Both the position numbers and the translations under genes were made by a program. From Candidatus Omnitrophota bacterium (GTDB lineage Bacteria > Omnitrophota > Gorgyraeia > 2-01-FULL-45-10), in NCBI GenBank assembly GCA_023818895.1, contig JAMWCX010000002.1, positions 30,001 to 62,000 of the forward strand: a stretch of 32,000 nucleotides of DNA, written 5' to 3'. The notes beneath the pieces were generated by a model. It worked only from the letters and a program-made list of their open reading frames with translations. It had not been told where the DNA came from and did not search any database. Positions 46 through 14,561 of this stretch are shown here, in pieces; the first letter of the stretch is position 1; each line of letters opens with the position of its first letter.

Positions 46-927
46 CTATTCCTCCGCCGTCACAGATGCCCCATCGCGCAGCTTCTGCTGGCCCATAATT
101 ACAACCGACTCTCCGACTTTAAGACCATCTATGACCTCGACATAGGCCCCCCGACGCGCGCCAAGCCTTACCTGCCGTAAACGCGCCTTGCCGTCCTCCA
201 CCACATAAACATAAAAAGGCTCGATGCGCCCAATCACGGCCTCTTTGAGGATGGCTGGATTCTGCCTGTGTTCCTCGATGATAAGACTAACTTTCGCGAA
301 CATGCCGGACTGAAGCCGGTGGTCCGGATTATCGATGACTATCTCGATAGGGGCGCTGCGCGTCTGCAAATCAATCACAGGGCTTATATTTTGAACATAT
401 CCGAGAAACTCTTCTTTTGGATAGGCGTCAACTCTGACTATCGCTTTCTGTCCTATCCGTATGCTGGGAAGATAGGTCTCCGGCACTTTAAGATATATCT
501 CCGCCTTGTCCATATCAGCAACGAGCGCTATAGGTGTCTGCATCGTTACACTTGATCCGATATCGACGTATATACGTCCTATCCTGCCGCTAAGCGGCGC
601 CTCAACAGGTGCCTTTTCGAATTTCAAGCCAACCTCATCCCGGTCGATATACGCTATCGGATCGCCTTTAGCAACAGTATCGCCTTCCTCTTTGACTTTT
701 TCTATTATTTTTCCGGTCACCTTAGGATATACAATAGCCTCATCCTGCCCCTTTATATCGCCAACGTACTCAAGTGTTCTCGAAACGTCTTCCAGCGACA
801 CCTTCATAACCTTTACCGGCATGGCCTCATTGCCAGCTTTAGTCTGCCGTCCTTTTTCGCAACCGCTTGTACCAACCGCTATTATGCATAAGCATATTAT
901 ATAAACGATACTGCGCTTCCGCTTCAT
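46..927 (-). CDS. efflux transporter periplasmic adaptor subunit (HlyD/MFP family), probable lipoprotein
   Basis: 293-aa ORF with an N-terminal hydrophobic signal ending in a Cys (AVGTSGC). Body resembles membrane-fusion adaptors (KVMKVSLEDV..., GDPIAYIDRDEV, GMFAKVSL, FYVYVVEDGKARLRQVRLG). AGGAG RBS precedes ATG at 927. It follows a TolC-like gene by 10 nt. Confidence 0.8.
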   Translation of the reverse strand: MKRKRSIVYIICLCIIAVGTSGCEKGRQTKAGNEAMPVKVMKVSLEDVSRTLEYVGDIKGQDEAIVYPKVTGKIIEKVKEEGDTVAKGDPIAYIDRDEVGLKFEKAPVEAPLSGRIGRIYVDIGSSVTMQTPIALVADMDKAEIYLKVPETYLPSIRIGQKAIVRVDAYPKEEFLGYVQNISPVIDLQTRSAPIEIVIDNPDHRLQSGMFAKVSLIIEEHRQNPAILKEAVIGRIEPFYVYVVEDGKARLRQVRLGARRGAYVEVIDGLKVGESVVIMGQQKLRDGASVTAEE

Positions 928-937
928 AACATTTCTC

Positions 938-2527
938 CTACTCTATCTTTATATTGTCGTATATTAGAGTCATGCCTTCGGCCAAGGCAAGTTCGGCGAT
1001 GGCCTTATTGTATTCTATGACGGCCTCGGCATAGCTAACCTCTGCTCGCGCCAACTTCTCCTGATAATCTATTATGTCGTGCGTGGAAACAAGCCCCGCT
1101 CTGAATCTCGCTTCTTGCGCCTCGTAATTCTTCTGTTCGGCATCCCTGTTCTTGATGCTTGCCTCAAGCATCCTGTATCTAATATCAACTTCGCGCACGG
1201 CGCTCCTCACTTCAAGTATTATCTTCTGCTCCATCCTCTTGAAAGCAAGCAGCGCCTGCTGTTTCTCAAGCTTAGATTTCTGATACTTACCCTTGGCATC
1301 ATCATTTCCAAGCGGCACCGTAACGCTTACGCCTACCTTCCAGTCATTATACATACCGCTACCCAGTATGCCCATGTCTTTCTCAAAGTTCTTAGCCAGG
1401 CCGTTATAGCCCCAACTTCCGACTAAATCTACGATCGGAAGCATGCCGTTCTTATTGTAGATAACGGTGATATCCTTGTTCTTCAAGTCTATCTTCGCCG
1501 CCTCGTAGTCCGGCCTGTGGCTGAAGGCCTTATCAAGTGAGTCTATACTATCAAGCTCTTTCTTCTCATACGCAAGCGCATCTAAGGGCTCAATATTGGC
1601 GCTCCACAATTCCACATCATTGACAAGGTTTGTGATGAATTTAAGGTTATCCTCAGCAAGTTTCATAACTCCTTCGGCGCCCGCGACCGCTTTTTCGAAA
1701 CGGGCGACTTCCGCTTCGGATTGCAAGAGATCCACATTCGATGCTATTCCTTTGGCATATTTTTCCTTGTTGATATTATACAGGTCCTCAACGCGCTTGA
1801 GCGAAACCACAGCCGTCTGGTACTGCGCACGGCTGTACTGGAAATCATAATAGGCCTTCTTCACGTCTGTAAGCGTCTTCATGACATCTTTCTTGAATTC
1901 CTGGATAGATTTTAGCTTATTGTTCTTCGCGATCAAAAAGTCCGCCTGAGTTACAACTATGCCGCCTCCTCTCATAAGGGGCTGTGTAACCGTTACCGCC
2001 GCAAAAGAGTCGAAGGTTGGATTTATAGCCTGAAAGAAAGGATCATAATTGGAACGGGTTCTTGTGGTATTGAAATCGAGAGCTATTTTAGTTCCGCTTA
2101 TAAGCGCTTGATCGTATCCGAAGTTTATTACGCTGGTCCTGACCTTGGTCGGATTCGGACCGAAAAGCGGCCGGTCACTGTTATCGGTATTATCCTCCAT
2201 CTCAAAATCAAACGAAAAGCTTGGATCGAACTTACCCGATGCCGTCTTAACGTTAGCATCCTCTATCTTAGGGGCGATACTCCTTATTAAGATTTCGGAA
2301 TTATTTTTAAGAGCCATGGCAACACAATCTACCATTGCTATTCTGAGGATTTTAGTTTTTTCCATTGAGGCTATATATGCGCCTTTGTCAAACCCCTCCC
2401 CAACCCCTCCTCTTTCGCGCTCACAACAAGATAGCGCCAAAGGGCCAAAAGGCCGCATCTCTTCAGCAGCCGCAAGTGCCGGAAATATAAATATAATGAT
2501 GATGAGAAATCCTAATGCCCTTTTCAT
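938..2527 (-). CDS. TolC-family outer-membrane efflux protein
   Basis: 529-aa ORF with a signal peptide (FIFPALAAAEE). It has the two-repeat coiled-coil/beta organisation and residue patterns of outer-membrane efflux proteins (ALKNNSEILI..., AYYDFQYSRAQYQ..., EARFRAGLVSTHDIIDYQ). Its ATG overlaps the MarR stop (ATGA). Confidence 0.8.
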   Translation of the reverse strand: MKRALGFLIIIIFIFPALAAAEEMRPFGPLALSCCERERGGVGEGFDKGAYIASMEKTKILRIAMVDCVAMALKNNSEILIRSIAPKIEDANVKTASGKFDPSFSFDFEMEDNTDNSDRPLFGPNPTKVRTSVINFGYDQALISGTKIALDFNTTRTRSNYDPFFQAINPTFDSFAAVTVTQPLMRGGGIVVTQADFLIAKNNKLKSIQEFKKDVMKTLTDVKKAYYDFQYSRAQYQTAVVSLKRVEDLYNINKEKYAKGIASNVDLLQSEAEVARFEKAVAGAEGVMKLAEDNLKFITNLVNDVELWSANIEPLDALAYEKKELDSIDSLDKAFSHRPDYEAAKIDLKNKDITVIYNKNGMLPIVDLVGSWGYNGLAKNFEKDMGILGSGMYNDWKVGVSVTVPLGNDDAKGKYQKSKLEKQQALLAFKRMEQKIILEVRSAVREVDIRYRMLEASIKNRDAEQKNYEAQEARFRAGLVSTHDIIDYQEKLARAEVSYAEAVIEYNKAIAELALAEGMTLIYDNIKIE

Positions 2528-2982
2528 TTTGCGCTTTCCTCTTGACCTTCCACATGCTCTTTTATATGGGTTAGTATTTTAAGGTATTCCTCACGCTCTC
2601 TCTGCGATATACCACTGAATATCTTTATGGTGGCCTGTTTACGCGCTTCCATAATATCCTTTACGGTAGATATCCCTTTCGCTGTTAGTTTCACCATTAC
2701 CACCCGCCGATCTCTTGGGTCGCTGGTACGCACTATATAGCCGTCCCTCACAAGTCTATCCACTATGCCCGTTACTGCAGCGGTTGACACATCCATAAAT
2801 TCAGCTATGTCTGACATCTTGGACTCATCCCGCCTGCTGAGAAACTCGAGGACAAAAAACTGCGGCATTGTAATTTTCATCTTGTAAAAATTTCCGACAT
2901 GCCTCCTCATGTATTCTTTCATGAGGGCAGGCATTATCTCCATAACGGCATCTGCAAATTCAGATATATCTAGGTAGGTCAT
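2524..2982 (-). CDS. MarR-family transcriptional regulator
   Basis: 152 aa with a winged-helix signature (MSDIAEFMDVSTAAVTGIVDRLVRDGYIVRTSDPRDRRVVMVKLTAKG). AGGAGG RBS upstream of ATG 2982. It is the first gene of the efflux operon. Confidence 0.85.
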   Translation of the reverse strand: MTYLDISEFADAVMEIMPALMKEYMRRHVGNFYKMKITMPQFFVLEFLSRRDESKMSDIAEFMDVSTAAVTGIVDRLVRDGYIVRTSDPRDRRVVMVKLTAKGISTVKDIMEARKQATIKIFSGISQREREEYLKILTHIKEHVEGQEESAK

Positions 2983-4013: not shown

Positions 4014-4735
4014 CTCATCTTTCTCCTTATCCTGCGGCCGGATATAGCCGCATAAATCTCATCTTTATCCACGACCCTGAAGCGCCCTTCTTTAAGGCCT
4101 TCCAAAGTCAAAGCCCCTATTCTTATACGTAATAGATCCACAACATCAAATCCAAGTTCCTCAAAAAGCCTCCTTAAATGCCTCTTCTTACCCTCGCATA
4201 CTATCACTCTTATCTTCGATATCGCTTTATCGGCATGCTCTATATAAGCCTGCTTTACCTTCAAAAAATCATCGCCCTCCCTCACGCCTCGCCTAATTGC
4301 CGCCAGACCCTTATCATCAACGAAGCCCTTAACGCTAACAAGATACTCTTTTTCGACTTCGAATTTTGGATGCGTGAGGCGGTAACAGGCCTCACCGTCG
4401 TTAGTAAGTATTATAAGGCCACGTGAAGGCTTATCGAGCCTGCCTACAGGATAAACCCTTCCGAATCTTTTCGGTATAAAATCTACTATCTTGGACTCGG
4501 CAAACTGGTCCTCAAGCGTAACGGTAACCCCTTTAGGCTTATTAAAGACCAGATACACGCTTTTTTCCAGGCGTAAAATCCTGCCCCTCGCTTTCACTGT
4601 ATCGTCGGTTCCGACTCTGAACCAAGGCTCGGTTACAACCTTTCCGTTTACCGTAACAGCGCCTTCTTTCACAAGTAAAGCGGCATCCCTGCGCGAGCAT
4701 AAACCACTTTTAGCAATGAATACATTCAAATTCAT
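4010..4735 (-). CDS. pseudouridine synthase, RsuA/RluB/RluE/RluF family, with N-terminal S4 domain
   Basis: S4 RNA-binding N-terminus (LNVFIAKSGLCSRRDAALLVKEGAVTVNG) and a catalytic-Asp motif (GRLDKPSRGLIILTNDGE). The specific rRNA target cannot be assigned. Confidence 0.85.
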   Translation of the reverse strand: MNLNVFIAKSGLCSRRDAALLVKEGAVTVNGKVVTEPWFRVGTDDTVKARGRILRLEKSVYLVFNKPKGVTVTLEDQFAESKIVDFIPKRFGRVYPVGRLDKPSRGLIILTNDGEACYRLTHPKFEVEKEYLVSVKGFVDDKGLAAIRRGVREGDDFLKVKQAYIEHADKAISKIRVIVCEGKKRHLRRLFEELGFDVVDLLRIRIGALTLEGLKEGRFRVVDKDEIYAAISGRRIRRKMR

Positions 4736-7050
4736 AATGCCGCTCTTCTGGTCTTAGCGCTCATAGCAAGGACTGCTAGAATCGTCACATTGAGTATGGC
4801 CAACATGAAGCATGTGCTAGGAATACCTATAATAGGTATCAATAATGTGCCTGTTATAAGCGCCCCAATACATGAACCCGCCAGCTCCATTCCGTATGTC
4901 ATACCGGCGACACGGCCTACGGACGATTCCTTATCAAGTAGTATATTGTTCGCGACCGGAAAGAGGAATCCGCCGATAGCGCCAGACAAAAAAGGTAGAA
5001 TCGTAAATACAATATCCGTCCCAACCCATGATGAAATATTCCCAATGGCAGTCGTCAGGTGCCCAAAAAGCCACGGCAAAAGCAAAGCGAATAAAAATAG
5101 CAAGGCCGGCACCACCATCAGGGCATTTTCTCCACTTCGTAGCTTCGGCGTGACTCGCGTCCCAAGCCATCCTCCTGTAGCAAGACCTGTCATATAGGCG
5201 GTAATTATAATCCCCAATTTATAGAATAGGTAGCCGTAAAGAATCTGGAAGGCAAGCAGTATTATTATCTGAAAGGTCATCTGGCTAAAACCGTTAACTG
5301 CCACGGTAGGAATCACGCTCCTTGCAAAGTCTTCTTTTTTTCTTGTCCCCACCAATCCAAAGACCAATATCAAACAGCAACCACATATTGCAAAAAGCCA
5401 TATAAACTTTGCCGTAATCGCTTTGAGGAAAGCGCTGAATAGCGAACCTTTAAACCGCGTAGTCCAGAACAATATATCGTAATAGTATGAGATAGGATAA
5501 AAATCCGAGTTTATACGGCTGCCCAAAGAGGCGGACTTTATTGTGTTATCCGTATAAGAGATATTCTGCGGCGACAACCTCGAAAAAAGGTAGTATTCCC
5601 TCACATACTTAAGGTCAAGGTTTCTTAATTTAGCCCTCTGCATGAGAATATTGAAGTCATAGGTAAGGCTGCTATTATCGTCAGATGCCAGGAAGTAGGA
5701 AGTCTCTCCTGGCAATACCTTCACTTCGCCGAAAACCGACTTCAGAGTGGCATATATGGAACCGAGAAACTCGGCAAGTTCCCTGCCTATATAGCTTTCG
5801 GATGAGGAAAGGCCTAAGGATAAAAGCCCTCCTTTCTTCATGACGGCCTTTGCCTCCTTGAAAAACTCAAGTGTATAGAACCTGTTTATCTGAGCGGTAG
5901 AGGGGGCGCCAAGGTTCACGATAATTACGTCGTATCTTGCTGCAGATGTGGTCTTTATGTAATATCTCGCGTCCATGAATATCGTTGACACTCTTTCGTC
6001 ATCGAGCGCTTTTTTATATTCGACGGGGAGATGTTGCTGGGCCAACTTAACGATAAGAGGGTCTAACTCTATGTAATCGATCTTCGCCAGGGAGTGACGC
6101 GCTATCTCCTCCAATAGGCCCCCCACCCCTCCGCCTATAAGGAGGACCACTTGAGGAGCTGGATGCTCTAAAAGCGCAAAGTGAGCAGCCTCTTCCGAAG
6201 CCTGTTTGTCCGGCACTGTATAAAGATGAAGGCCGTTGTTGAAAAAGGAAAGCTGGTTGCCTCTTTTTACAATAGCGACATTGCCATAGATAGAGTTTTT
6301 GGACGAAATTAGCTCGTAACCGGGCCACTGGGCCTTTGAAAGGTACAAGTCAACATGAGAGAAGCCATCATAAACAAACGCGATAATGATAAAGATAAGG
6401 AAAACAAGTGCCGGCAATGCCACGTATATGCGAAATTTTTCCTCTTTCGAGGACAAAATCAGGGCGATTGCCGCGCCCACCAAAAGCAGGCTTAAGACAG
6501 CCATTATCTGCATCGAAACCATCATGGGAATTAAAAAAAAGCTTGTGACGAGGCCGCCGACCATAGCTCCTATCGCCTCAAGAACATACACAGCGCCTGA
6601 GGCAATCGCCCCGCTTGGGCGCAGTGACCCATAAAGACGACACGCCAAAGCAAACATGAAGCCCAAAAGCATGCAGATCGGCGCAAGGATGAGGAAGGAC
6701 ATTATCATCACAGGAAAAAGTGGGATGGTTTCGCCCGGATTTACTCCGAGAAAAGTCTTCAGCGACCTTATAAAGAAGACAGCAAAAGGAAGAGCCGCGG
6801 CGAGGGCAAGCTGGCATAATGAAAAGATAAAAGCCTTATGTCTAATGCGGTCTGATAGCCGGCCAAGAAGGGCACTTCCTATGGCGCCTGTTATAAGCCA
6901 ACCTGCCAGTATGAAAGCGATGGAGAGTTCGTTACCGTAAAAAACCAAAAGGAACTCGCGCATCAGCACTATCTGTGATGCCATCGCAATAAAGCCGATA
7001 AGTATTATAGATAGGATCGAGCTCTTCTCGAAGCGCTTTTTATCGGTCAT
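4732..7050 (-). CDS. polytopic membrane protein fused to a spermidine-synthase-like (SpeE-fold) domain
   Basis: 772 aa. There are about 7 hydrophobic helices N-terminally and several more C-terminally. The central segment aligns by eye with SpeE (VVLLIGGGVGGLLEEI...IDYIELDP...RYDVIIVNLGAPSTAQINRFYTLEFF). Confidence 0.75.
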   Translation of the reverse strand: MTDKKRFEKSSILSIILIGFIAMASQIVLMREFLLVFYGNELSIAFILAGWLITGAIGSALLGRLSDRIRHKAFIFSLCQLALAAALPFAVFFIRSLKTFLGVNPGETIPLFPVMIMSFLILAPICMLLGFMFALACRLYGSLRPSGAIASGAVYVLEAIGAMVGGLVTSFFLIPMMVSMQIMAVLSLLLVGAAIALILSSKEEKFRIYVALPALVFLIFIIIAFVYDGFSHVDLYLSKAQWPGYELISSKNSIYGNVAIVKRGNQLSFFNNGLHLYTVPDKQASEEAAHFALLEHPAPQVVLLIGGGVGGLLEEIARHSLAKIDYIELDPLIVKLAQQHLPVEYKKALDDERVSTIFMDARYYIKTTSAARYDVIIVNLGAPSTAQINRFYTLEFFKEAKAVMKKGGLLSLGLSSSESYIGRELAEFLGSIYATLKSVFGEVKVLPGETSYFLASDDNSSLTYDFNILMQRAKLRNLDLKYVREYYLFSRLSPQNISYTDNTIKSASLGSRINSDFYPISYYYDILFWTTRFKGSLFSAFLKAITAKFIWLFAICGCCLILVFGLVGTRKKEDFARSVIPTVAVNGFSQMTFQIIILLAFQILYGYLFYKLGIIITAYMTGLATGGWLGTRVTPKLRSGENALMVVPALLFLFALLLPWLFGHLTTAIGNISSWVGTDIVFTILPFLSGAIGGFLFPVANNILLDKESSVGRVAGMTYGMELAGSCIGALITGTLLIPIIGIPSTCFMLAILNVTILAVLAMSAKTRRAAL

Positions 7051-7067: not shown

Positions 7068-7742
7068 CTATGTTCCGTAACGGCTGAAAATAATCCCAAC
7101 CCCTAGCAACATTAAAAGAATAGCGCACATTACCTTGAAGAAGGTCAAGACAATTTGAGATCTGATGGTCTTCTGGATCACTTCTTTAAGAATGCCAACG
7201 ATAGCGCCAACCGTTATAAGACCTGATAGGAAAGTGCCGAGGCCGAAAGATAATGCATACAGAGCGCCGTCATATGAACCTTTTGACATAAGGGCGATTT
7301 CAAATAGAAGCGCGGCGAGCGGAACGCAAGGACTAATGCCGATCAGAAAGCCCAAAGCCAACAGCCCCCCAAAACCAGAGACCTTAGTATAGGCGGCGCC
7401 GAATGCGCATTGCGAGGATGACGGCTTGCGGACCAGAATAGTAATGCCAAGTACTATACTTACAACACCCGCAATAGATTTAAATACATAGTCAAGATTT
7501 GACTGTGTAAATTTTCTCAATAAGGCGCCTGAAGCCCCAGCGATTGCGCCAAGTATTACATAGGCGGATAACCTACCGGTCAGGAATATGAGAATATCTA
7601 TTAATGTCCGGTGCCATTGCTCCCTTTTTCCAAGAATATACGTAACCAGGATAGGCGCACAGACCAAAAAGCATGGGCCAACTACCCCGAAACTGAAGCC
7701 AATGCCGAAAATCTGGAGGTGAGTAATGAGGGTGTTAAACAT
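7068..7742 (-). CDS. DsbD/CcdA-superfamily integral membrane protein (putative transmembrane thiol-disulfide/electron-transfer protein)
   Basis: 224 aa with about 6 TM helices. Cys residues are embedded in TM1 (VVGPCFLVCAP) and a central TM (LIGISPCVPLAALL), as in CcdA/DsbD_2-type proteins. The assignment rests on topology and Cys placement only. Confidence 0.5.
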   Translation of the reverse strand: MFNTLITHLQIFGIGFSFGVVGPCFLVCAPILVTYILGKREQWHRTLIDILIFLTGRLSAYVILGAIAGASGALLRKFTQSNLDYVFKSIAGVVSIVLGITILVRKPSSSQCAFGAAYTKVSGFGGLLALGFLIGISPCVPLAALLFEIALMSKGSYDGALYALSFGLGTFLSGLITVGAIVGILKEVIQKTIRSQIVLTFFKVMCAILLMLLGVGIIFSRYGT

Positions 7743-7848: not shown

Positions 7849-8955
7849 CTACTTTTCCCATATACCGGCGATTTTATACCCACAATATGCGCACTTGCCA
7901 TCTTTAAGGCCATTCGGCCGCGTGGTATAGCCGAGCCGCTCTATTACCATCTTACCACAATTCGGGCAGTATGTGTTTTCATGTGGATTGCCGGGAACAT
8001 TGCCTATGTAAACGTAATTCAATCCGGCATCTTTGGCTATTTTATACGCCTCTTCGAGTTTCTCCGCCGGCGTAGGAGGAAGGTTCTGAAGCCTGAATGC
8101 GGGCATGAAACGGCTGAAATGGAGGGGCACGTCTTCTCCGAGATTATCCTTTATCCATCTGCACATCTTCCTTATCTCTTCCGGACTATCGTTCTGGCCC
8201 GGGATCAGGAGGTTGGTTATCTCAAGCCAGACGCCTTCCTCCTTTACAATTTTAAGCGTATCGAGGACAGGCTGAAGCTCTGCATCCGCGTTCATCCTCC
8301 TGTAAAATTCCGGATTGAAGCTTTTCAGGTCGACATTCACGGCGTCCATGTACTTGAGGAGTTCTCTGAGAGGCTCGGGATTTATGTACCCACAGGTGTG
8401 CATGCAGTTCTTAAGGCCGCCTTGCCTGGCGAGCTTCGCCGTATCGAGCATGTATTCATAAAAGACGGTTGGCTCGGTATATGTATAGGATATAAACGGA
8501 GAGGCTGCCTTTATAGCGTCTTCCACAACTTTTTCAGGAGGAAGATCGTAGGCAGCAACGTCATCCGGCCGTGCCTGTGATATCTGCCAGTTCTGGCAAA
8601 ATAGGCATCGCATATTGCAACCTGCGGTAGCGATTGAAAATGCAGTTGTGCCGGGATAGACGTGAAAGAAAGGCTTCTTTTCGATGGGATCAACGTGAAC
8701 CGCCACCGGATTTCCGTATCCGAGCGTATAGAGAAGCCCGTCACGGTTTTCGCGGACTGTACATATCCCCCTCTGACTGGGCGCGAGCACACACCGGCGG
8801 GGACACAGGATGCATTGGACTATCTTGCCTTTTACAATATTCCAGTAGCTTGCAACACGGGGCAAAGCCTTTGAGGATTGGTAGGAATAAATGATCTCCG
8901 AACAAAGAGATGCCCCAAGGATCGCAATAAAGGAAACTGTTAGTAATTTTTTCAT
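7849..8955 (-). CDS. AmmeMemoRadiSam-type radical SAM enzyme (PflA-like activase fold) with N-terminal hydrophobic signal-anchor
   Basis: Cx3Cx2C cluster motif (CNMRCLFCQNW) and an upstream Cys-rich segment (CILCPRRCVLAPSQRGICTVRENRDG). It also has HVDPIEKKPFFH and a C-terminal CxxC...CxxC ribbon (YCPNCG...GKCAYCG). All of these are characteristic of this family as I remember it. The first 25 aa (MKKLLTVSFIAILGASLCSEIIY) form a hydrophobic helix. Confidence 0.8.
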   Translation of the reverse strand: MKKLLTVSFIAILGASLCSEIIYSYQSSKALPRVASYWNIVKGKIVQCILCPRRCVLAPSQRGICTVRENRDGLLYTLGYGNPVAVHVDPIEKKPFFHVYPGTTAFSIATAGCNMRCLFCQNWQISQARPDDVAAYDLPPEKVVEDAIKAASPFISYTYTEPTVFYEYMLDTAKLARQGGLKNCMHTCGYINPEPLRELLKYMDAVNVDLKSFNPEFYRRMNADAELQPVLDTLKIVKEEGVWLEITNLLIPGQNDSPEEIRKMCRWIKDNLGEDVPLHFSRFMPAFRLQNLPPTPAEKLEEAYKIAKDAGLNYVYIGNVPGNPHENTYCPNCGKMVIERLGYTTRPNGLKDGKCAYCGYKIAGIWEK

Positions 8956-8988: not shown

Positions 8989-11850
8989 TCACTCCCTACT
9001 CCATGTTCCGATAGCTGAACCCTCAAAGGTGCCAGAAGGCGTAACGTTATCGATGGTATTAATCACACCCGATGCTACACCCGTTATATTTCTAGAAACA
9101 AGATCGGCATCGACCACGGTTCCGCTAACGTTTGCCTGCCAAGTATTGCCATCCCATTGTGTGCCGGTCAGCGTAATGGAGGAAGCCGGATTTGTTAACA
9201 GATTTTCCACAACTACTGACCACAGAGCCCCGCCTCCAGAGAAATCTCCGGATATATGGGCTGCCCAGACACCGTTAGATGCACCTGCGATCGTCTCATA
9301 AAGGCGCATGTCCATGAAGACGTTTGTAATACTGCCGGCTCCTCCGCTGAAATAGCCGTTTCCTGTCAATGATATGCTTGCCGCCTCTGTTATGGGGACC
9401 GAGATCCAACCGTTATTGTATACATTCTGCACCTGGGATGTTATCGTAGCCATGTCCTGAATGACCGTATTATCATATACCTCAGCCCATTCGCCGCAAC
9501 CGACCGCTTGCCATGTGCCTGTTTGGCCGGGATCCACATCTACGTAATTTCCAAGGACCCTTCCTTCTCGCAGAGCGAAGACCTTAATACAGCCGTCCTC
9601 CGAAAGGGAAAGAGAAAAACCTTCACTCTCGCCACTAAGCCCGTTAGCGCCCCAATTAGCGATTGAAAGATACTGCATCCATACGCCGTCTTTAAACTCG
9701 TCGTCTTCACTAGTCCCTGCCAACTGCATCACCCATCCGCCTAAAACATCTCTATACGAACCAGCAAAACGCGATGCCCAAATACCCCATCCCGGCTCCG
9801 GTGAAAGATCGAACGAGGCCGCAAAACCATCAACCAGTCTGGCTGTCACCTCAGAACCGTCGCCAAGATCAGCATATCCTTTACCAGAGAGACTGCCGTT
9901 GTCTTTTATAGATGTATAAAGCTCTTCCGGCAATATACCAAAAGGATCACCGCTATGTGAAGCCGTTGAATAGACCTGATGGACCCAGAAAGATGAGCCC
10001 TGATCCAGCGTAAAAGCGGTTGTATTATCACCTTCCGCCTTGCCGAAGAGCGTCCCCGCATTGCCAGCCGAATCCACATATAGTCCTATTGCCAGCATTT
10101 TTATAAGGCCGCCAACACCTCCGTCTATCGTTCCTCCCATAACACAATAATATGCTCCGCCGTCAGAAGTTGTATATGCCGCCGTGTTGCTATCATAGCT
10201 AAAAAGGTCATCCGTCGTCCATATGTGATATTGCCCGCTACTATCGGCGGCATCATAATTTCCTGACAACATGACCTCAACCGGATAATATTCCGAGGTA
10301 GCCGTCCATAATAAAGTATAATCGTTAGGGTCGTTTATGTCGGGACCTTCCGCGCTGAAGTCATACATGCCGCCACCGTCGTTGACAAGGTAAGGGTCAC
10401 CTTGGGCATCGAGTGATGCGTAAAAAAAGTCACCAACTTTGTCGATGTGCTGAACCTCATCTGTAACCTGATCTAATATGCTCGAATCGGCCTCCGTGAT
10501 AGGGACGTTAACCACATCGGTATCAACGGTATCGGACTCAGAAGTGTCAACTGTATCGGTTAAACTGGCAATCTCGCTTGCCACACCTCCGGCAAGACCC
10601 GCATCCGCCAGTGCGCTACCATCCGTTCCCCCGTCAGCATCACTGGTCCCGCCGCTCGGATCGAACCCTTCGTCCATAGCAGCGCGGTCTTCTTCGCTCG
10701 GTGCCTCAGTCTGCGTTATAGAACCGGTAGAATCGACGGTTGTGCCACCGCCGGCACCGACCTCCATAGTTTCGCCTGTGACGAGGCTGGTTGCATAACC
10801 GTTACCACCTTCGAAAAATGAGCTTGTCGCACCATTCGCCGCTATATGTACCAGCATGATGGTCCCGCGCGCGCCACAGATGGCCGTCGGGGTCTTGACC
10901 TCGAATTTTGATTTTCCTTTAAGCCCTTCTATTCGAGCCTTAACTCCGCCGCGCTCCGCCTCAAACAAATTCTCAAACTCGCCGGTTTTAGAATCGACGA
11001 CGAGCTTCAATATCGTAATATGTGTGTCGGGCTTAAGGTAAAGGGCATTGCCGTTATCGAAGGCTATCTCGACAATCCCATTCGAGCCAGTTGTAACCTT
11101 ATCACCCTCGCCCAGAACCTCGCCCTGTCTGGCCTGGTGAGGCTCTGCTACACCCCTGCTAGTAACCTTGACATCGCCGGTCAGTTTCGTGATGGTTCCC
11201 TTTATGGAAGATGCGCCTTTCCTTGCCGCTATAGTCTCCGGTATATTTGTGTCCTGCTCGTGAAACTTAAGTTCCATGTCCATGTATCTGCGTGGCCCCT
11301 TCGGCGCGTCTTCAAGCGGGATAACAACCGCGCTTCCGGCGGGGACGCTGACAACTTCCTGCGGCTTTAAATTATTGGACACAGAAAGGATCCCTTCTTC
11401 GACCAGCATGCCGCTGTTTCCGGCCTGATAGTATGCGAATATGTCCGACCCTTTAACGACACCGGTGGAATTAGGCGTCGATATCCTGAACTCAGAAGAG
11501 TCTTTCATCTTGGCTATGATGGTTCTGAATTTGCCCCTTTCAAGCCTTAATTCCGCGCTCTTCCTATTATTATGCTGGTCGAGAGTATAATCCAATATAT
11601 CGACTTTCGAATTCTGCGCTATCCTCATAACCGTTCTATCCGCAAAAATCACTTCCGCCTTGGAATTGGACTTGGTCCTGATGGAATCACCCACATTGAT
11701 GAGTGCACCATCAACTGCGGGAGTACCTTTATCGGAACCTGAGGTAAATATATCGACCCTGCCTTCCGTATAGGTAATCTTACCAACTTCAGCAGCCATT
11801 GCAGCTGAAGCAAGGGCGACGATAAAAACATAAATGAGAAGTGTCCGCAT
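8989..11850 (-). CDS. large secreted protein with two N-terminal FecR domains and a C-terminal domain of unknown function
   Basis: I prefer the start at ATG 11850 (MRTLLIYVFIVALASAAMA|AEV, a Sec signal with AGGAGG RBS) over the ORF-track start at 11910, which overlaps the upstream gene. There are two FecR-like modules (GKITYTEGRVDI...GDSIRTKSNSKAEVIFADRTVMRIAQNSKV and GTITKLTGDVKV...GDKVTTGSNGIVEIAFDNGNALYLKPDTHI). An acidic D/T/S/G linker follows, then about 480 aa rich in G/S/T/D/W/Y. Confidence 0.75.
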   Translation of the reverse strand: MRTLLIYVFIVALASAAMAAEVGKITYTEGRVDIFTSGSDKGTPAVDGALINVGDSIRTKSNSKAEVIFADRTVMRIAQNSKVDILDYTLDQHNNRKSAELRLERGKFRTIIAKMKDSSEFRISTPNSTGVVKGSDIFAYYQAGNSGMLVEEGILSVSNNLKPQEVVSVPAGSAVVIPLEDAPKGPRRYMDMELKFHEQDTNIPETIAARKGASSIKGTITKLTGDVKVTSRGVAEPHQARQGEVLGEGDKVTTGSNGIVEIAFDNGNALYLKPDTHITILKLVVDSKTGEFENLFEAERGGVKARIEGLKGKSKFEVKTPTAICGARGTIMLVHIAANGATSSFFEGGNGYATSLVTGETMEVGAGGGTTVDSTGSITQTEAPSEEDRAAMDEGFDPSGGTSDADGGTDGSALADAGLAGGVASEIASLTDTVDTSESDTVDTDVVNVPITEADSSILDQVTDEVQHIDKVGDFFYASLDAQGDPYLVNDGGGMYDFSAEGPDINDPNDYTLLWTATSEYYPVEVMLSGNYDAADSSGQYHIWTTDDLFSYDSNTAAYTTSDGGAYYCVMGGTIDGGVGGLIKMLAIGLYVDSAGNAGTLFGKAEGDNTTAFTLDQGSSFWVHQVYSTASHSGDPFGILPEELYTSIKDNGSLSGKGYADLGDGSEVTARLVDGFAASFDLSPEPGWGIWASRFAGSYRDVLGGWVMQLAGTSEDDEFKDGVWMQYLSIANWGANGLSGESEGFSLSLSEDGCIKVFALREGRVLGNYVDVDPGQTGTWQAVGCGEWAEVYDNTVIQDMATITSQVQNVYNNGWISVPITEAASISLTGNGYFSGGAGSITNVFMDMRLYETIAGASNGVWAAHISGDFSGGGALWSVVVENLLTNPASSITLTGTQWDGNTWQANVSGTVVDADLVSRNITGVASGVINTIDNVTPSGTFEGSAIGTWSRE

Positions 11851-11860
11851 TTTAAACCTC

Positions 11861-13399
11861 CTAAAATTTGAAATTGACGCCTGCGCTGTAAATGTTGCGC
11901 GTGTATTCATAGACGCTTATGTTGGAATCGTCCTGCACATGGGTATATTGAAGCCTGATCTCGGAGTCCTTGTAAAATTTATATGCGGCAAGAGCCGATA
12001 AGGTATAGACCTGGTCATGTCTGTAAACACCGTAAACAGAATTGGTCCTTGTGAAGTTCTCGAAAAACATATCACCTGAAACGGTGAGGTTTAGCTTGTC
12101 AAATTTTGGCAGAATTAGTGAGGAAGGAATAAGAAGGACAACGGTCGCCCTGTTGCCGATATAGTTCCAGTTATTTCCTTCGGTCCATTCACGATTAAGA
12201 CCATAACGCACGTTGAAGAAACCCCTATTCTTGTCGAAAAACATGTACCATGCAAGCGTACCCCCGAGATAATTCGATGTGCGGTTCTCCTGCGGTATGC
12301 TCGGCCCCCACAGGTAATCCTTATACTGGTAAAGCATTGTAAGTTGCCCCATATTCCAGTCGTTCAGCATATAGTTATAAACGCCGGCAGCCGAAGGCAT
12401 GGAAAGATATGCCTTGTCATTTACAAGGTAATGGTTGTAGCCGAGTGGAAATGACAACATGTGTCTTTCGCGAGTAAATGTCGGCTGGGCGATGAAGGAA
12501 TTGACGACGGTATCGTAGAATCCGAGGTCGTTCTGCTTCGCCCAGTAGAATGAATACTGCCCCCTCAGGCTGAACACGTCGTTGGCGCGCCACGTATATT
12601 CCGCCTGCGCGGTCGTGACCTCGCGGGAGTCGGCCTTATCGGAAATGCCGACCGCCAGAGTATCCTCGTTCGGCATCAGGACTACATTGTCATCATACTC
12701 CCACGCTATGCCGGCCTGAATCTTCAATGGCCTTGTTACTTCTTCGGTTCTGGCTATGGCGTTTATGTATTCATTGGCGTAATTCGCCATAGTGGAATTG
12801 GGGTCAGTTATTATGACCTGCTTGAACACCTCACGTGCCTCGCTGAATTTCTTAAGCCGGATATTGGCCATTCCGATCTGATAACTACAAGCCTGGCTCA
12901 TCGACGGATCTATCCGCTCAGCCTTTCTAAAGGATTCGATCGCTTCAGCTGGCTTGTCGCTTTTCATCAGGATCAGTCCTTTAAGGAATGCGACCTGCGC
13001 AGGCCGGATGTCTTGAGCTTCGGCTTCGGCTATCCATTTGTAGGCCTCCTCGAAATCGCCAGCCTGGCCGAGGCAGTCTATGAGCTCTACAAGCGCACCT
13101 TTGATCTTGGGCGAGTATGTCACGGCGTCCCGCAAATTTGGTATCGCGGACTTATAATCCTGCATTTTTTTATAGGTTAGGCCTGTATAATAAGCGGCGA
13201 TCGTAGAACGGGGCTGTTCCTGCCTGACTTTCTTTAAAAGCGCGAGGGCCTCTTCATAGTTTTCGTGCTTATATTGACCTATCGCCTTTTCAAGGACAGG
13301 ATTTGACTTCTCATTTTCCTGCGCACCAACAATAAGGTTCAATTGCAGAGCTATTATTACCGAAAAGCCGATTGTCACAAATGCTATACGTTTTAGCAT
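11861..13399 (-). CDS. outer-membrane protein with N-terminal TPR domain and C-terminal beta-barrel
   Basis: I prefer the start at ATG 13399 (MLKRIAFVTIGFSVIIALQLNLIVGAQE, GGAGG RBS). About 5-6 TPR-like helical pairs span roughly aa 30-225. About 14 alternating-hydrophobic strands follow, and the protein ends in the OMP-type terminus ...YSAGVNFKF. Confidence 0.7.
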   Translation of the reverse strand: MLKRIAFVTIGFSVIIALQLNLIVGAQENEKSNPVLEKAIGQYKHENYEEALALLKKVRQEQPRSTIAAYYTGLTYKKMQDYKSAIPNLRDAVTYSPKIKGALVELIDCLGQAGDFEEAYKWIAEAEAQDIRPAQVAFLKGLILMKSDKPAEAIESFRKAERIDPSMSQACSYQIGMANIRLKKFSEAREVFKQVIITDPNSTMANYANEYINAIARTEEVTRPLKIQAGIAWEYDDNVVLMPNEDTLAVGISDKADSREVTTAQAEYTWRANDVFSLRGQYSFYWAKQNDLGFYDTVVNSFIAQPTFTRERHMLSFPLGYNHYLVNDKAYLSMPSAAGVYNYMLNDWNMGQLTMLYQYKDYLWGPSIPQENRTSNYLGGTLAWYMFFDKNRGFFNVRYGLNREWTEGNNWNYIGNRATVVLLIPSSLILPKFDKLNLTVSGDMFFENFTRTNSVYGVYRHDQVYTLSALAAYKFYKDSEIRLQYTHVQDDSNISVYEYTRNIYSAGVNFKF

Positions 13400-13455: not shown

Positions 13456-13485
13456 AGTATATCATAATATTTATAATGGTGTCAA
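13456..13485 (-). promoter_or_regulatory. sigma70-like promoter for the TPR-barrel gene and downstream genes
   Basis: Minus strand reads TTGACA (13485-13480), 18 nt, TATACT (13461-13456). It lies just downstream of the terminator at 13521-13557 and about 55 nt upstream of ATG 13399. Confidence 0.45.
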
Positions 13486-13520: not shown

Positions 13521-13557
13521 AAAAAAGACGGCTTCCAACACGCACTGGAAGCCGTCT
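13521..13557 (-). terminator. rho-independent terminator
   Basis: Perfect 12-bp stem (13526-13537 pairs with 13546-13557; AGACGGCTTCCA/TGGAAGCCGTCT) with an 8-nt loop. A U5 run follows on the minus strand. It starts 24 nt after the YD-repeat gene stop. Confidence 0.8.
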
Positions 13558-13580
13558 CCATTCTTGCTTGGAACCTGTCT

Positions 13581-14561
13581 TTATTTCTGCTGTTGATCCT
13601 CTCTCAAAGGTTTCGGCTGCTCTGCCATAGTAGCCGTTACAGCGACATTGGTTGGTACCTGGTTCGCTTGAGTGGTAACAGTATCTTGCACAGCCATAGC
13701 GCCTTCTAAATCGGCATTAATTACCCTCTGTGCAGCTGGAGCAAGCGTTGGCGCGCTTGGCACATCTTCAATACCCTCATAAACGATCTGCTGGCGATCT
13801 ATCACGCCACCGCTTGAGTCGTAGGTTAAGATGGTCATCCGCGTGGGGTTTCCTGCAATACCGAAGGCCTCGTTGGTGATATTCTGGATAATAAGAAGGT
13901 CGCCGGCCGCATCGTAGGTCGAGACTTTCTGCTGGGTCACCCTGCCGTATTCGTCGACGGCCAGGTTCTCGGTCTGGATTTTTTGGGCGAGGTTTCCTTC
14001 AGCGTCGTATGTGTATACAACCTGAATCTGGTCAAGGGACGCAAGCTCATTATAGCCGTAGTGCGTGTAGTCATTTGAGATAACCTGCTTCTCCTTAAGA
14101 AGCTCGCCGTCTGCTGCATAAGAAAGAACTGTCATCCGGGTTGGCCTTCCGTATTCATCATAGGAGTCGTAGGTGATGAGCCTCCTTTCAAGAAGCTCGC
14201 CTTCAGGGGTATAATCGGCAATGGTTTTTTCCAGGACTCTTCCGAAGAAGTCGTATTTGACGGACTCCACGTTGGTGCCCATAGCCTCCGCCCTATTATT
14301 GAGGGTGGTGATCTTCTGGCTTATCACTCTACCCTGCTCATCCAATGCGATGTCGTCGAATATTTTGATGTCGATCAAGACTCGGTTACCCTTCTCATCG
14401 GTGTAGTAGTTGACATTTAAAAGAATCTTTGACATTCTCTGTCTCATCGCTTCCTCTACAGACGAAAGCCACCATTCATCATTTTCCTGAGCATTGAGAA
14501 TAGCCATTGCCGATGGAACAAGCATTGTTAATAATATCAGTATTATTATTTTTGCTTTCAT
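13581..14561 (-). CDS. small secreted YD(Rhs-type)-repeat protein
   Basis: Sec signal (MKAKIIILILLTMLVPSAMA) and GGAGG RBS. About 12 consecutive beta-hairpin repeats match the YD consensus (YTYDAEGNLAQK, STYDAAGDLLI, LTYDSSGGVIDR, YDEYGRPTRMT, VDEYGRVTQQK, SYAADGELLKEK, YTPEGELLERR). The C-terminal tail is P/A/Q/T-rich and low in complexity. Confidence 0.7.
   Translation of the reverse strand: MKAKIIILILLTMLVPSAMAILNAQENDEWWLSSVEEAMRQRMSKILLNVNYYTDEKGNRVLIDIKIFDDIALDEQGRVISQKITTLNNRAEAMGTNVESVKYDFFGRVLEKTIADYTPEGELLERRLITYDSYDEYGRPTRMTVLSYAADGELLKEKQVISNDYTHYGYNELASLDQIQVVYTYDAEGNLAQKIQTENLAVDEYGRVTQQKVSTYDAAGDLLIIQNITNEAFGIAGNPTRMTILTYDSSGGVIDRQQIVYEGIEDVPSAPTLAPAAQRVINADLEGAMAVQDTVTTQANQVPTNVAVTATMAEQPKPLREDQQQK

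Follow-up and report, generated by a model that had tools for sequence, protein, structure and literature searches.

Type 11 secretion systems (T11SSs), with their surface lipoprotein assembly modifier (Slam, DUF560) translocons, have been studied almost entirely in host-associated Proteobacteria, and their cargo has been defined by a TbpB-like C-terminal barrel. A Slam carries an N-terminal periplasmic tetratricopeptide repeat (TPR) domain and a C-terminal barrel, predicted to be 14-stranded in Slam1 (PMC5449769). Canonical Slams translocate the cargo encoded by the adjacent gene (PMC5449769, PMC12282271), and T11SS cargo bears at its C-terminus an eight-stranded beta-barrel of the TbpBBD/lipoprotein-C type (PMC12282271). 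Here, we analysed a window of 32,000 nucleotides from a Candidatus Omnitrophota bacterium (contig JAMWCX010000002.1, positions 30,001 to 62,000 of the forward strand), in which a gene for a TPR and beta-barrel outer-membrane protein (11861..13399) is followed by a gene for a Sec-exported FecR-domain protein (8989..11850), both on the minus strand. By analogy with the Slams, the barrel is most likely a Slam-family translocon or anchor that serves specifically its FecR-domain partner and may feed into envelope signalling.

The barrel protein (MLKRIAF...GVNFKF*, 512 aa) was defined by its open reading frame (ORF), its homologues, an AlphaFold2 model and profile comparison. The initial annotation had described a signal peptide, TPR repeats and about 14 beta-strands ending in NFKF, and this layout was recovered by Pfam and by the model. 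Residues 1-26 form a hydrophobic N-terminal leader, a signal peptide reading MLKRIAFVTIGFSVIIALQLNLIVGA before the cleavage site and QE after it (13322..13399; a helix at residues 2-26 in the model). TPR families of Pfam matched at E 2.5e-19 to 1e-10 over roughly residues 26-215. The model, built from a 41-sequence alignment with a mean predicted local distance difference test (pLDDT) score of 89.2, placed 12 helices, or about six TPR hairpins, at residues 34-221 and 14 beta-strands at residues 225-511. These correspond to a periplasmic TPR domain (residues 34-221, 12737..13300) and a beta-barrel (residues 225-512, 11864..12727), the latter also outlined by the alignments. The count of 14 strands, and not 16-18, is that of a predicted structure rather than a solved one.

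A profile of Slams was needed for comparison because single-sequence templates were too weak, the hhalign probability with a single Acinetobacter baumannii Slam as the template being only 3.9%. The reference profile was an alignment of nine annotated Slam/DUF560 proteins taken from plasmids, including an A. baumannii gene with a TbpB-like protein, TonB and haem oxygenase encoded beside it and a gene from Erwinia adjoining a 'Slam-dependent surface lipoprotein'. The subfamily of the window (A1) aligned with this profile by hhalign at a probability of 99.0% (E 7.4e-18) over 388 columns that covered the TPR domain and the whole barrel, and the barrel-only profile aligned at 98.5% (E 1.9e-15), while the control barrels of Escherichia coli PgaA and BcsC gave 0.6% and 0.1%, respectively. 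Moreover, the R-x-D, S-N and terminal-F positions of the barrel that are invariant in the nine Slams align with invariant positions of the present family. Orthologous barrels from Nitrospirota and Desulfobacterota, which are 30-38% identical to the window protein over the full length, matched PF04575 (SlipAM/DUF560) at 23-42 bits against a curated cut-off of 22, most of them spanning profile positions 1-288 of 288. Starting from one of these orthologue barrels (L062), a search recovered the Omnitrophota subfamily of the window at E 1e-52 and met precomputed PF04575 and TPR_Slam (PF24575) assignments across the Nitrospirota clade, and the only matches of this barrel in a tblastn search of 72,556 plasmids were genes annotated 'surface lipoprotein assembly modifier'. 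When 78 barrel domains of the family were scanned singly, BBP2_2 matched in 64, DUF2860 in 41 and SlipAM in 24; a search of PDB sequences with the barrel-family profile found nothing. The view that the protein is not a Slam, taken from direct Pfam and NCBIfam scans alone, was overturned by the 78-barrel scan and the profile-profile comparison. On sequence grounds, the PF04575 matches of the orthologues, the subfamily alignments, the shared invariant positions and the controls below 1% together make the barrel protein a divergent member of the Slam/T11SS family (DUF560/SlipAM), with a TPR domain about two TPRs longer than that of canonical Slams (an hhalign gap at residues 118-190). The DUF560 relationship suggested by the initial annotation therefore held at the level of the family, while the Pfam check gave no direct PF04575 match for the window protein.

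The family is large and consistently paired. A barrel-only search returned 55 close homologues, of which the full-length ones were all about 500 aa long with a TPR domain and a barrel. Relatives occurred in 124 GTDB species genomes in a scan of one genome per species, from Omnitrophota, Nitrospirota, Thermodesulfovibrionales, Desulfobacterota, Nitrospinota and Zetaproteobacteria (at least five phyla), and the family comprised 465 cluster representatives at 50% identity (E<=1e-3). We counted as informative the non-redundant loci with at least 600 nt of downstream sequence (n=75). An exported FecR-domain protein was encoded downstream on the same strand, as the next gene or the next but one, in 74 of these 75, in Omnitrophota, Nitrospirota, Desulfobacterota, Nitrospinota and Zetaproteobacteria, and the sole unpaired locus came from a single-cell assembly. 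The linkage of orthologues to genes for secreted proteins is thus nearly invariant. The FecR gene started within 250 nt of the barrel gene in 66 of the 74 paired loci; in eight, one small gene intervened, which encoded a LuxR/GerE regulator where scanned. In the window itself, exactly 10 nt (gaggtttaaa) separate the TAG stop of the barrel gene from the ATG of the FecR gene, the spacing reported initially. An AGGAGG ribosome-binding site that overlaps this stop, together with the 10-nt spacer (11851..11862, minus strand), implies a predicted translational and operonic coupling of the two genes. Taken together, these results indicate that the FecR-domain neighbour is the likely partner of the barrel.

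Two features of individual loci touch on this pairing. The intervening LuxR/GerE-type regulators were seen in L054, L068, L069 and L075-L077 (Nitrospirota, Desulfobacterales), with a VpsT-like REC or a PAS N-terminus in the two that were scanned, and they lie on the opposite strand in L054-type loci. In addition, L083 carries two barrel-FecR pairs in tandem, and L010 and L035 come from one metagenome-assembled genome (MAG). By analogy with Slam1 and Slam2, more than one pair per genome suggests that barrels and partners may be specific to each other.

The partner protein of the window (953 aa), recognised from its ORF and from Pfam and NCBIfam matches, has a 100% identical counterpart at NCBI, from a Candidatus Omnitrophica MAG. 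It has a signal peptide without a lipobox, as had been noted initially, and two copies of FecR (PF04773, E 1.6e-25). The two FecR beta-domains (residues 21-188 and 213-372; 10735..11790, minus strand) run from the mature N-terminus, where AA stands before the cleavage site and EVGKITYTEGRVD after it. In the AlphaFold2 model (pLDDT 80.3), this folded N-terminal part is followed by a disordered, acidic, low-complexity linker with pLDDT below 50 (residues 398-467; 10450..10659, minus strand) and by an all-beta C-terminal region whose sequence varies between orthologues (residues 471-952; 8995..10440, minus strand). The roughly 24 long antiparallel strands of the C-terminal region form approximately three groups of eight, and DSSP assigned eight strands to the last ~130 aa of the model, so that the modelled C-terminus may be a structural analogue of the TbpBBD-type eight-stranded barrel. 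A TbpB-like cargo identity of this C-terminus was rejected at the level of sequence. Approximately the last 60 aa form a conserved C-terminal module (LTGTQWDGNTWQANVSGT...GVASGVI...SGTFEGSAIGTWSRE; 8992..9180, minus strand).

This plan was common among the 74 partners: the signal peptide is followed by one or two FecR domains, then by a disordered linker and a variable beta-rich region, and mostly by the C-terminal module. All of them had a Sec signal peptide, none a convincing lipobox (two of the 74 matched the pattern by chance), and in all of them the motif (E)VGK(I/F)T(Y/F).EGRVD began a few residues past the cleavage site. Their lengths ranged from 256 to 2642 aa, and a low-complexity, charged or proline-rich linker followed the FecR domains in the majority. 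The C-terminal module, about 55 aa long (...LTGTQW..G.W.A.V.GT...F.G.A.GTY...GTF.G.G.GTW) and ending within ~15 residues of the C-terminus, was present in 41 of the 74 partners and in four apparently split genes. Its presence was independent of length, the partners bearing it measuring 408-2642 aa and coming from several phyla. The short partners (312-497 aa) of L084, L085 and L088 (Nitrospinota, Zetaproteobacteria) and L078 (Geobacteraceae) are without this G/T/W-rich module and end in a proline-rich stretch and one amphipathic strand whose last residue is aromatic (...VTINLIF, ...VTLTLVF, ...VKIRVEF), which resembles an outer-membrane beta-signal or a putative barrel-adding strand. Some long partners contain Ig-like or PKD domains.

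Structural searches connected the FecR domains of the window partner with two kinds of periplasmic module. By Foldseek, the FecR domain matched the C-terminal cell-surface signalling domain of PupR (6ovk_R, E 3e-6, probability 1.0) and also BDI_1681 (4m0h). The partner likewise matched 5ix9, the N-terminal domain that anchors the Marinomonas adhesin MpIBP, with probability 1.0, a template modelling (TM) score of 0.72 and 34% identity over 64 columns, the similar segment being the start of the second FecR domain (about residues 217-296, window ~10963..11202). At the sequence level, the NCBIfam model retention_LapA reached 29 bits (E 1e-6), its cut-off being 50, and phmmer against 5ix9 gave E 0.079. 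The LapA retention module has been modelled on 5ix9; in it, a folded periplasmic plug and a flexible segment within a TolC-like pore keep the adhesin on the surface (bioRxiv 10.1101/198937). Our comparison suggests that the LapA/MpIBP retention modules are FecR-like folds, and that they have a fold, and perhaps also a role, in common with FecR domains; this link was not met in the literature examined.

Many of these loci also lie near genes for CHASE2 sensors. The CHASE2 domain is found only a few times per genome. Genes for such sensors lay within 9 kb in 26 of 84 non-redundant loci (31%) of at least four phyla, often directly adjacent, a frequency that we judged to be far above chance. Their output domains were SpoIIE/PP2C (19), cyclase (7) and histidine kinase (7), with PP2C/SpoIIE in Omnitrophota and cyclases or kinases elsewhere; in Zetaproteobacteria, the gene order is barrel, FecR, CHASE2. 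In L001 and L006, the CHASE2-SpoIIE (PP2C) gene upstream stands beside MlaD/MlaE/ABC lipid-transport genes and a STAS/HATPase_c_2 partner-switching pair, an arrangement that suggests an RsbU-like envelope stress circuit. In the Omnitrophota loci L005 and L007, the place where a CHASE2-PP2C gene would be, directly 5' of the barrel gene, is occupied by exosortase/EpsI, several PEP-CTERM proteins, a sugar transferase, a sigma-54 activator and a PocR-GAF protein. On the other side, three accessory genes follow the FecR gene in 21-24 loci, mostly of Omnitrophota (L001, L005-L007, L013, L015-L017, L019, L020, L024, L026 and others), encoding a SurA_N/peptidyl-prolyl isomerase-like periplasmic protein (~263 aa), a HAMP membrane protein (~190 aa) and a secreted HExxH protein (...FAHEVAHAV..., ~163 aa). 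The last of these had no Pfam match and could be a processing protease. None of the three is encoded in the window.

Based on these observations, we consider it on balance probable that a divergent Slam/T11SS-family barrel and a dedicated, Sec-exported, non-lipidated FecR-domain partner form a system in which the barrel handles the partner as Slams handle their cargo. After Sec export, the TPR domain would receive the partner in the periplasm. The barrel would then handle it at the outer membrane in the way Slams treat the cargo encoded next to them: the conserved C-terminal module would serve for recognition, and the variable C-terminal region would be brought to the cell surface. We prefer a variant in which the folded FecR domains would remain in the periplasm as a retention or relay module while the disordered linker is threaded through the barrel, the geometry proposed for the LapA/MpIBP adhesins. 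The periplasmic FecR domains might engage the TPR domain and, where one is encoded, pass information to a CHASE2 sensor. That the barrel acts on its neighbour like a Slam is inferred by analogy.

The likeness to the Slams on which this proposal draws is extensive. Slam1 and Slam2 (the Neisseria NMB0313 family), NilB, HrpB and HsmA share with the present barrel the periplasmic TPR domain, the predicted 14-strand barrel, end-to-end profile homology, the invariant positions described above, an adjacent gene for a Sec-exported partner and the possibility of several cognate pairs per genome. Unlike these, the window barrel has about two extra TPRs and has diverged too far for a direct Pfam match, and its family belongs to Omnitrophota and other largely non-proteobacterial phyla, with no TonB, haem or metal-uptake context, in agreement with the setting outside proteobacterial iron uptake that had been supposed. 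The LapA/MpIBP adhesins, with LapE as their pore, resemble the partner in the 5ix9-like N-terminal beta-module, the flexible linker, the large variable beta-rich region and the conserved termini around a varying middle. However, the partner is exported by Sec and not by a type 1 secretion system (T1SS), has no RTX repeats (no RTX family matched in Pfam) and has no consistent LapG/LapD genes nearby, and its pore would be a Slam-like barrel rather than a TolC-like trimer.

Several results weigh against our proposal. PF04575 did not match the whole barrel protein at E<=1 (among the best 25 of 33 families), nor the barrel alone even at E<=10, and TPR_Slam reached 23.2 bits against a cut-off of 35.2. 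The sole non-TPR Pfam match was BBP2_2 (PF10082), which fell just short of its cut-off (23.0 against 23.7 bits) and covered only the C-terminal 60 aa and profile positions 317-378 of 378. As EpsL and TIGR03016 of NCBIfam likewise gave weak matches to the C-terminus only, far under their cut-offs, a BBP2_2/EpsL-type identity was set aside for want of an above-threshold match over the barrel. On the partner side, the protein differs from Slam cargo in its FecR domain, the missing lipobox, the new ~55-aa C-terminal module and the lack of a TbpB-like C-terminal barrel signature at the sequence level. Its C-terminal domain aligned with four TbpB-like T11SS cargo proteins at an hhalign probability of only 0.1% and matched no Pfam family, and the Foldseek match of the partner to TbpB (probability 0.2) was not confident. 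In addition, the only part kept in every partner is the N-terminal FecR domain, which is periplasmic in FecR and PupR; some partners of only 256-340 aa have little to display on the surface; and the window contains no CHASE2 gene.

The same FecR domains allow an explanation without export, which we regard as unlikely. In this trans-envelope signalling complex, the barrel would be an outer-membrane sensor or gate like FecA, and a wholly periplasmic FecR protein would dock on the TPR domain or barrel and pass what happens at the outer membrane on to an inner-membrane CHASE2 sensor (PP2C phosphatase, cyclase or kinase) or to LuxR-type regulators. The CHASE2 genes with their varied outputs, the Zetaproteobacterial gene order, the STAS and anti-sigma-kinase partner-switching genes near the CHASE2-PP2C gene and the LuxR/GerE regulators between the two genes in several Nitrospirota and Desulfobacterota loci all agree with it, as do the PupR-like fold and the very short partners. 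There are also precedents. Pairs of FecR-domain and CHASE2 genes are known in Burkholderia without any Slam, in a study that states the CHASE2 inputs as not known (PMC5192318); a FecR-domain gene was noted in a study of the CHASE2-cyclase/Clr regulon of Sinorhizobium meliloti (PMC5498481); and the outer-membrane barrel protein NsrA is required for CHASE2-cyclase signalling (PMC7529298, PMC13001267). The Burkholderia 'BiofilmReg' operon and the S. meliloti system (smc02177, the CHASE2 cyclase CyaD1 and NsrA) thus resemble the present loci in a secreted FecR protein linked to a CHASE2 sensor and, in S. meliloti, in an outer-membrane barrel protein needed for signalling. Nevertheless, a Slam-like gene is absent from both, a LysM domain is part of the FecR protein of Burkholderia, NsrA, described as ~1200 aa, is not comparable to the window barrel, and the CHASE2 link of the present family extends to only about a third of loci, the window not among them. 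The FecA-FecR-FecI and PupR systems also have a FecR-type beta-domain beside an outer-membrane barrel gene and often lie in regulatory neighbourhoods, but the partner has a cleavable signal peptide in place of the cytoplasmic anti-sigma domain and transmembrane helix, and the barrel is of the 14-strand Slam type rather than a 22-strand TonB-dependent transducer, with no extracytoplasmic-function (ECF) sigma gene nearby. Furthermore, a variable and often huge beta-rich region (up to 2642 aa for the whole partner) with a module at the extreme C-terminus fits a purely periplasmic relay poorly, the linker between folded parts suggests a membrane-spanning topology, and the homologues of the barrel with known function are translocons. 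About as unlikely is a combination of threading and signalling, in which the pair would be the outer-membrane end of an unrecognised cell-surface signalling device, the threaded FecR protein exposing its C-terminus as an external sensor or adhesin while its FecR domains contact CHASE2 or LuxR-type circuits.

At the other extreme, a classical T11SS of the haemophilin type might secrete the entire FecR protein to the surface or medium as an extracellular adhesin or binding protein. The homology to Slams and the adjacency of the cargo gene are what such a system predicts, haemophilins are non-lipidated cargo as well (PMC12282271), and the best NCBIfam matches of the partner were the Leptospira proteins Lsa33 ('surface adhesin', E 1.3e-34) and LipL45, two FecR-domain proteins whose names class them as surface proteins. 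The Ig-like and PKD domains of some long partners also speak for it. We find this doubtful, since two stably folded FecR domains would need to pass, a TbpBBD-like targeting domain was not found by hhalign or Pfam, and both the CHASE2/FecR linkage, which points to a periplasmic role of FecR, and the likeness to retention modules point the other way. By far the least probable explanation is a porin for polysaccharide or polymer export of the TPR-barrel type (BcsC, PgaA, PelB or an EpsL/PEP-CTERM-associated protein) with the FecR neighbour as its regulator. These porins share the TPR domain and C-terminal barrel with the window protein, yet they are much larger, have 16-strand barrels, as polysaccharide exporters do, and are encoded in synthase operons. 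BcsC (E 7e-12) and PelBC were the top PDB structures in Foldseek, which reflects the common TPR-plus-barrel plan, but the best target-normalised TM score was to OmpG (0.74), followed by CymA (0.58), both of them 14-strand barrels. The weak C-terminal EpsL, TIGR03016 and BBP2_2 matches, the exosortase, PEP-CTERM and sugar-transferase genes upstream in two loci and the assignment of PF04575 to PgaA homologues in an earlier network (PMC8406197) can be read in favour of a porin. It was rejected on the 14-strand model, on the hhalign controls, which gave no profile similarity between the PgaA or BcsC barrels and that of the window, and on gene context, as polysaccharide synthase or glycosyltransferase genes were neither present in the window nor recurrent over the 84 related loci; the initial annotation had already set this type of exporter aside. 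Our preferred explanation remains the Slam-family translocon or anchor with a dedicated FecR-domain partner.

The layout of the window, on the minus strand unless stated otherwise, indicates that the barrel and FecR genes are one predicted operon. Its 5' limit is an intrinsic-terminator-like hairpin with a 16-bp stem and a T run (13524..13559), which closes the upstream gene, and the best sigma-70-like promoter match of the region (TTGACA-18-TATACT, 13456..13485; a consensus match only) agrees with 11 of 12 consensus positions, has a TG extension and lies ~57 nt 5' of the barrel-gene ATG. The ORF listing contains a longer alternative for the barrel gene, of 566 aa with a start at 13561; the 512-aa start was retained because the longer one begins inside the hairpin and because the homologues measure 498-506 aa. 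The upstream gene (13581..14561) encodes a 326-aa secreted protein with a signal peptide, a Gln/Pro-rich tail and degenerate YD/RHS-like repeats, all of whose matches were below threshold. It is a separate transcription unit, given its own terminator and the promoter-like site between this and the barrel gene, and it did not recur in the 84 loci compared. Both flanking secreted proteins had initially been put forward as candidate cargo; the FecR protein is coupled and conserved, while the YD-repeat protein was ruled out on these grounds.

Downstream, a radical-SAM enzyme gene (7849..8955) starts only ~33 nt past the stop of the FecR gene with no terminator-like site between them and may be co-transcribed with it. 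It is followed on its 3' side by a gene for a DsbD_2-type membrane protein (7068..7742) and, beyond this, by one (4732..7050) whose 772-aa product is a polytopic membrane protein containing a spermidine-synthase domain. At 46..2982 (minus strand) lies an efflux or T1SS-like unit made up of a MarR regulator, a TolC-like outer-membrane efflux protein (OEP) and a HlyD-type membrane-fusion protein. The HlyD-like and OEP genes of this MarR-linked unit (46..2527) are ~6-6.5 kb from the FecR gene and are unlinked to FecR genes elsewhere. The remaining genes of the window are housekeeping genes, for RecJ, a cation-efflux (CDF) protein, SecDF, Tgt, QueA, RodA, PBP2, MreBCD and others, and none of its larger ORFs was recognised as a sigma-70 family or TonB-dependent receptor gene.

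DUF560 proteins of Nitrospirae, Thermodesulfovibrio and Omnitrophica have already been listed, as uncharacterised members of clusters 7 and 11 (PMC8406197, Table S1), so that DUF560 proteins outside the Proteobacteria are not new in themselves. These entries, with Thermodesulfovibrio yellowstonii THEYE_A2092 in cluster 7, may belong to the present barrel family. In contrast, a literature search found no co-mention of FecR with DUF560, nor of the FecR domain with Slam or T11SS. Neither FecR nor CHASE2 is named in the accessible part of the PMC8406197 supplements, and FecR is absent from the main text of a 2025 cargo survey (PMC12282271). The pairing with FecR, the C-terminal module and the link to CHASE2 thus appear to be undescribed.

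Taken together, these results describe a large, multi-phylum family of Slam-related barrels with a near-invariant partner rule of its own, namely a FecR-domain protein with a C-terminal module. If the partner is exported, it would represent a new class of cargo with a new targeting signal, in environmental phyla for which few secretion routes have been characterised. If the FecR domains instead stay in the periplasm and contact CHASE2, they would provide a concrete and testable partner for this domain. Should the pair prove to be a signalling device, it would supply a protein ligand for the orphan CHASE2 domain and a signalling role for barrels of the T11SS family.

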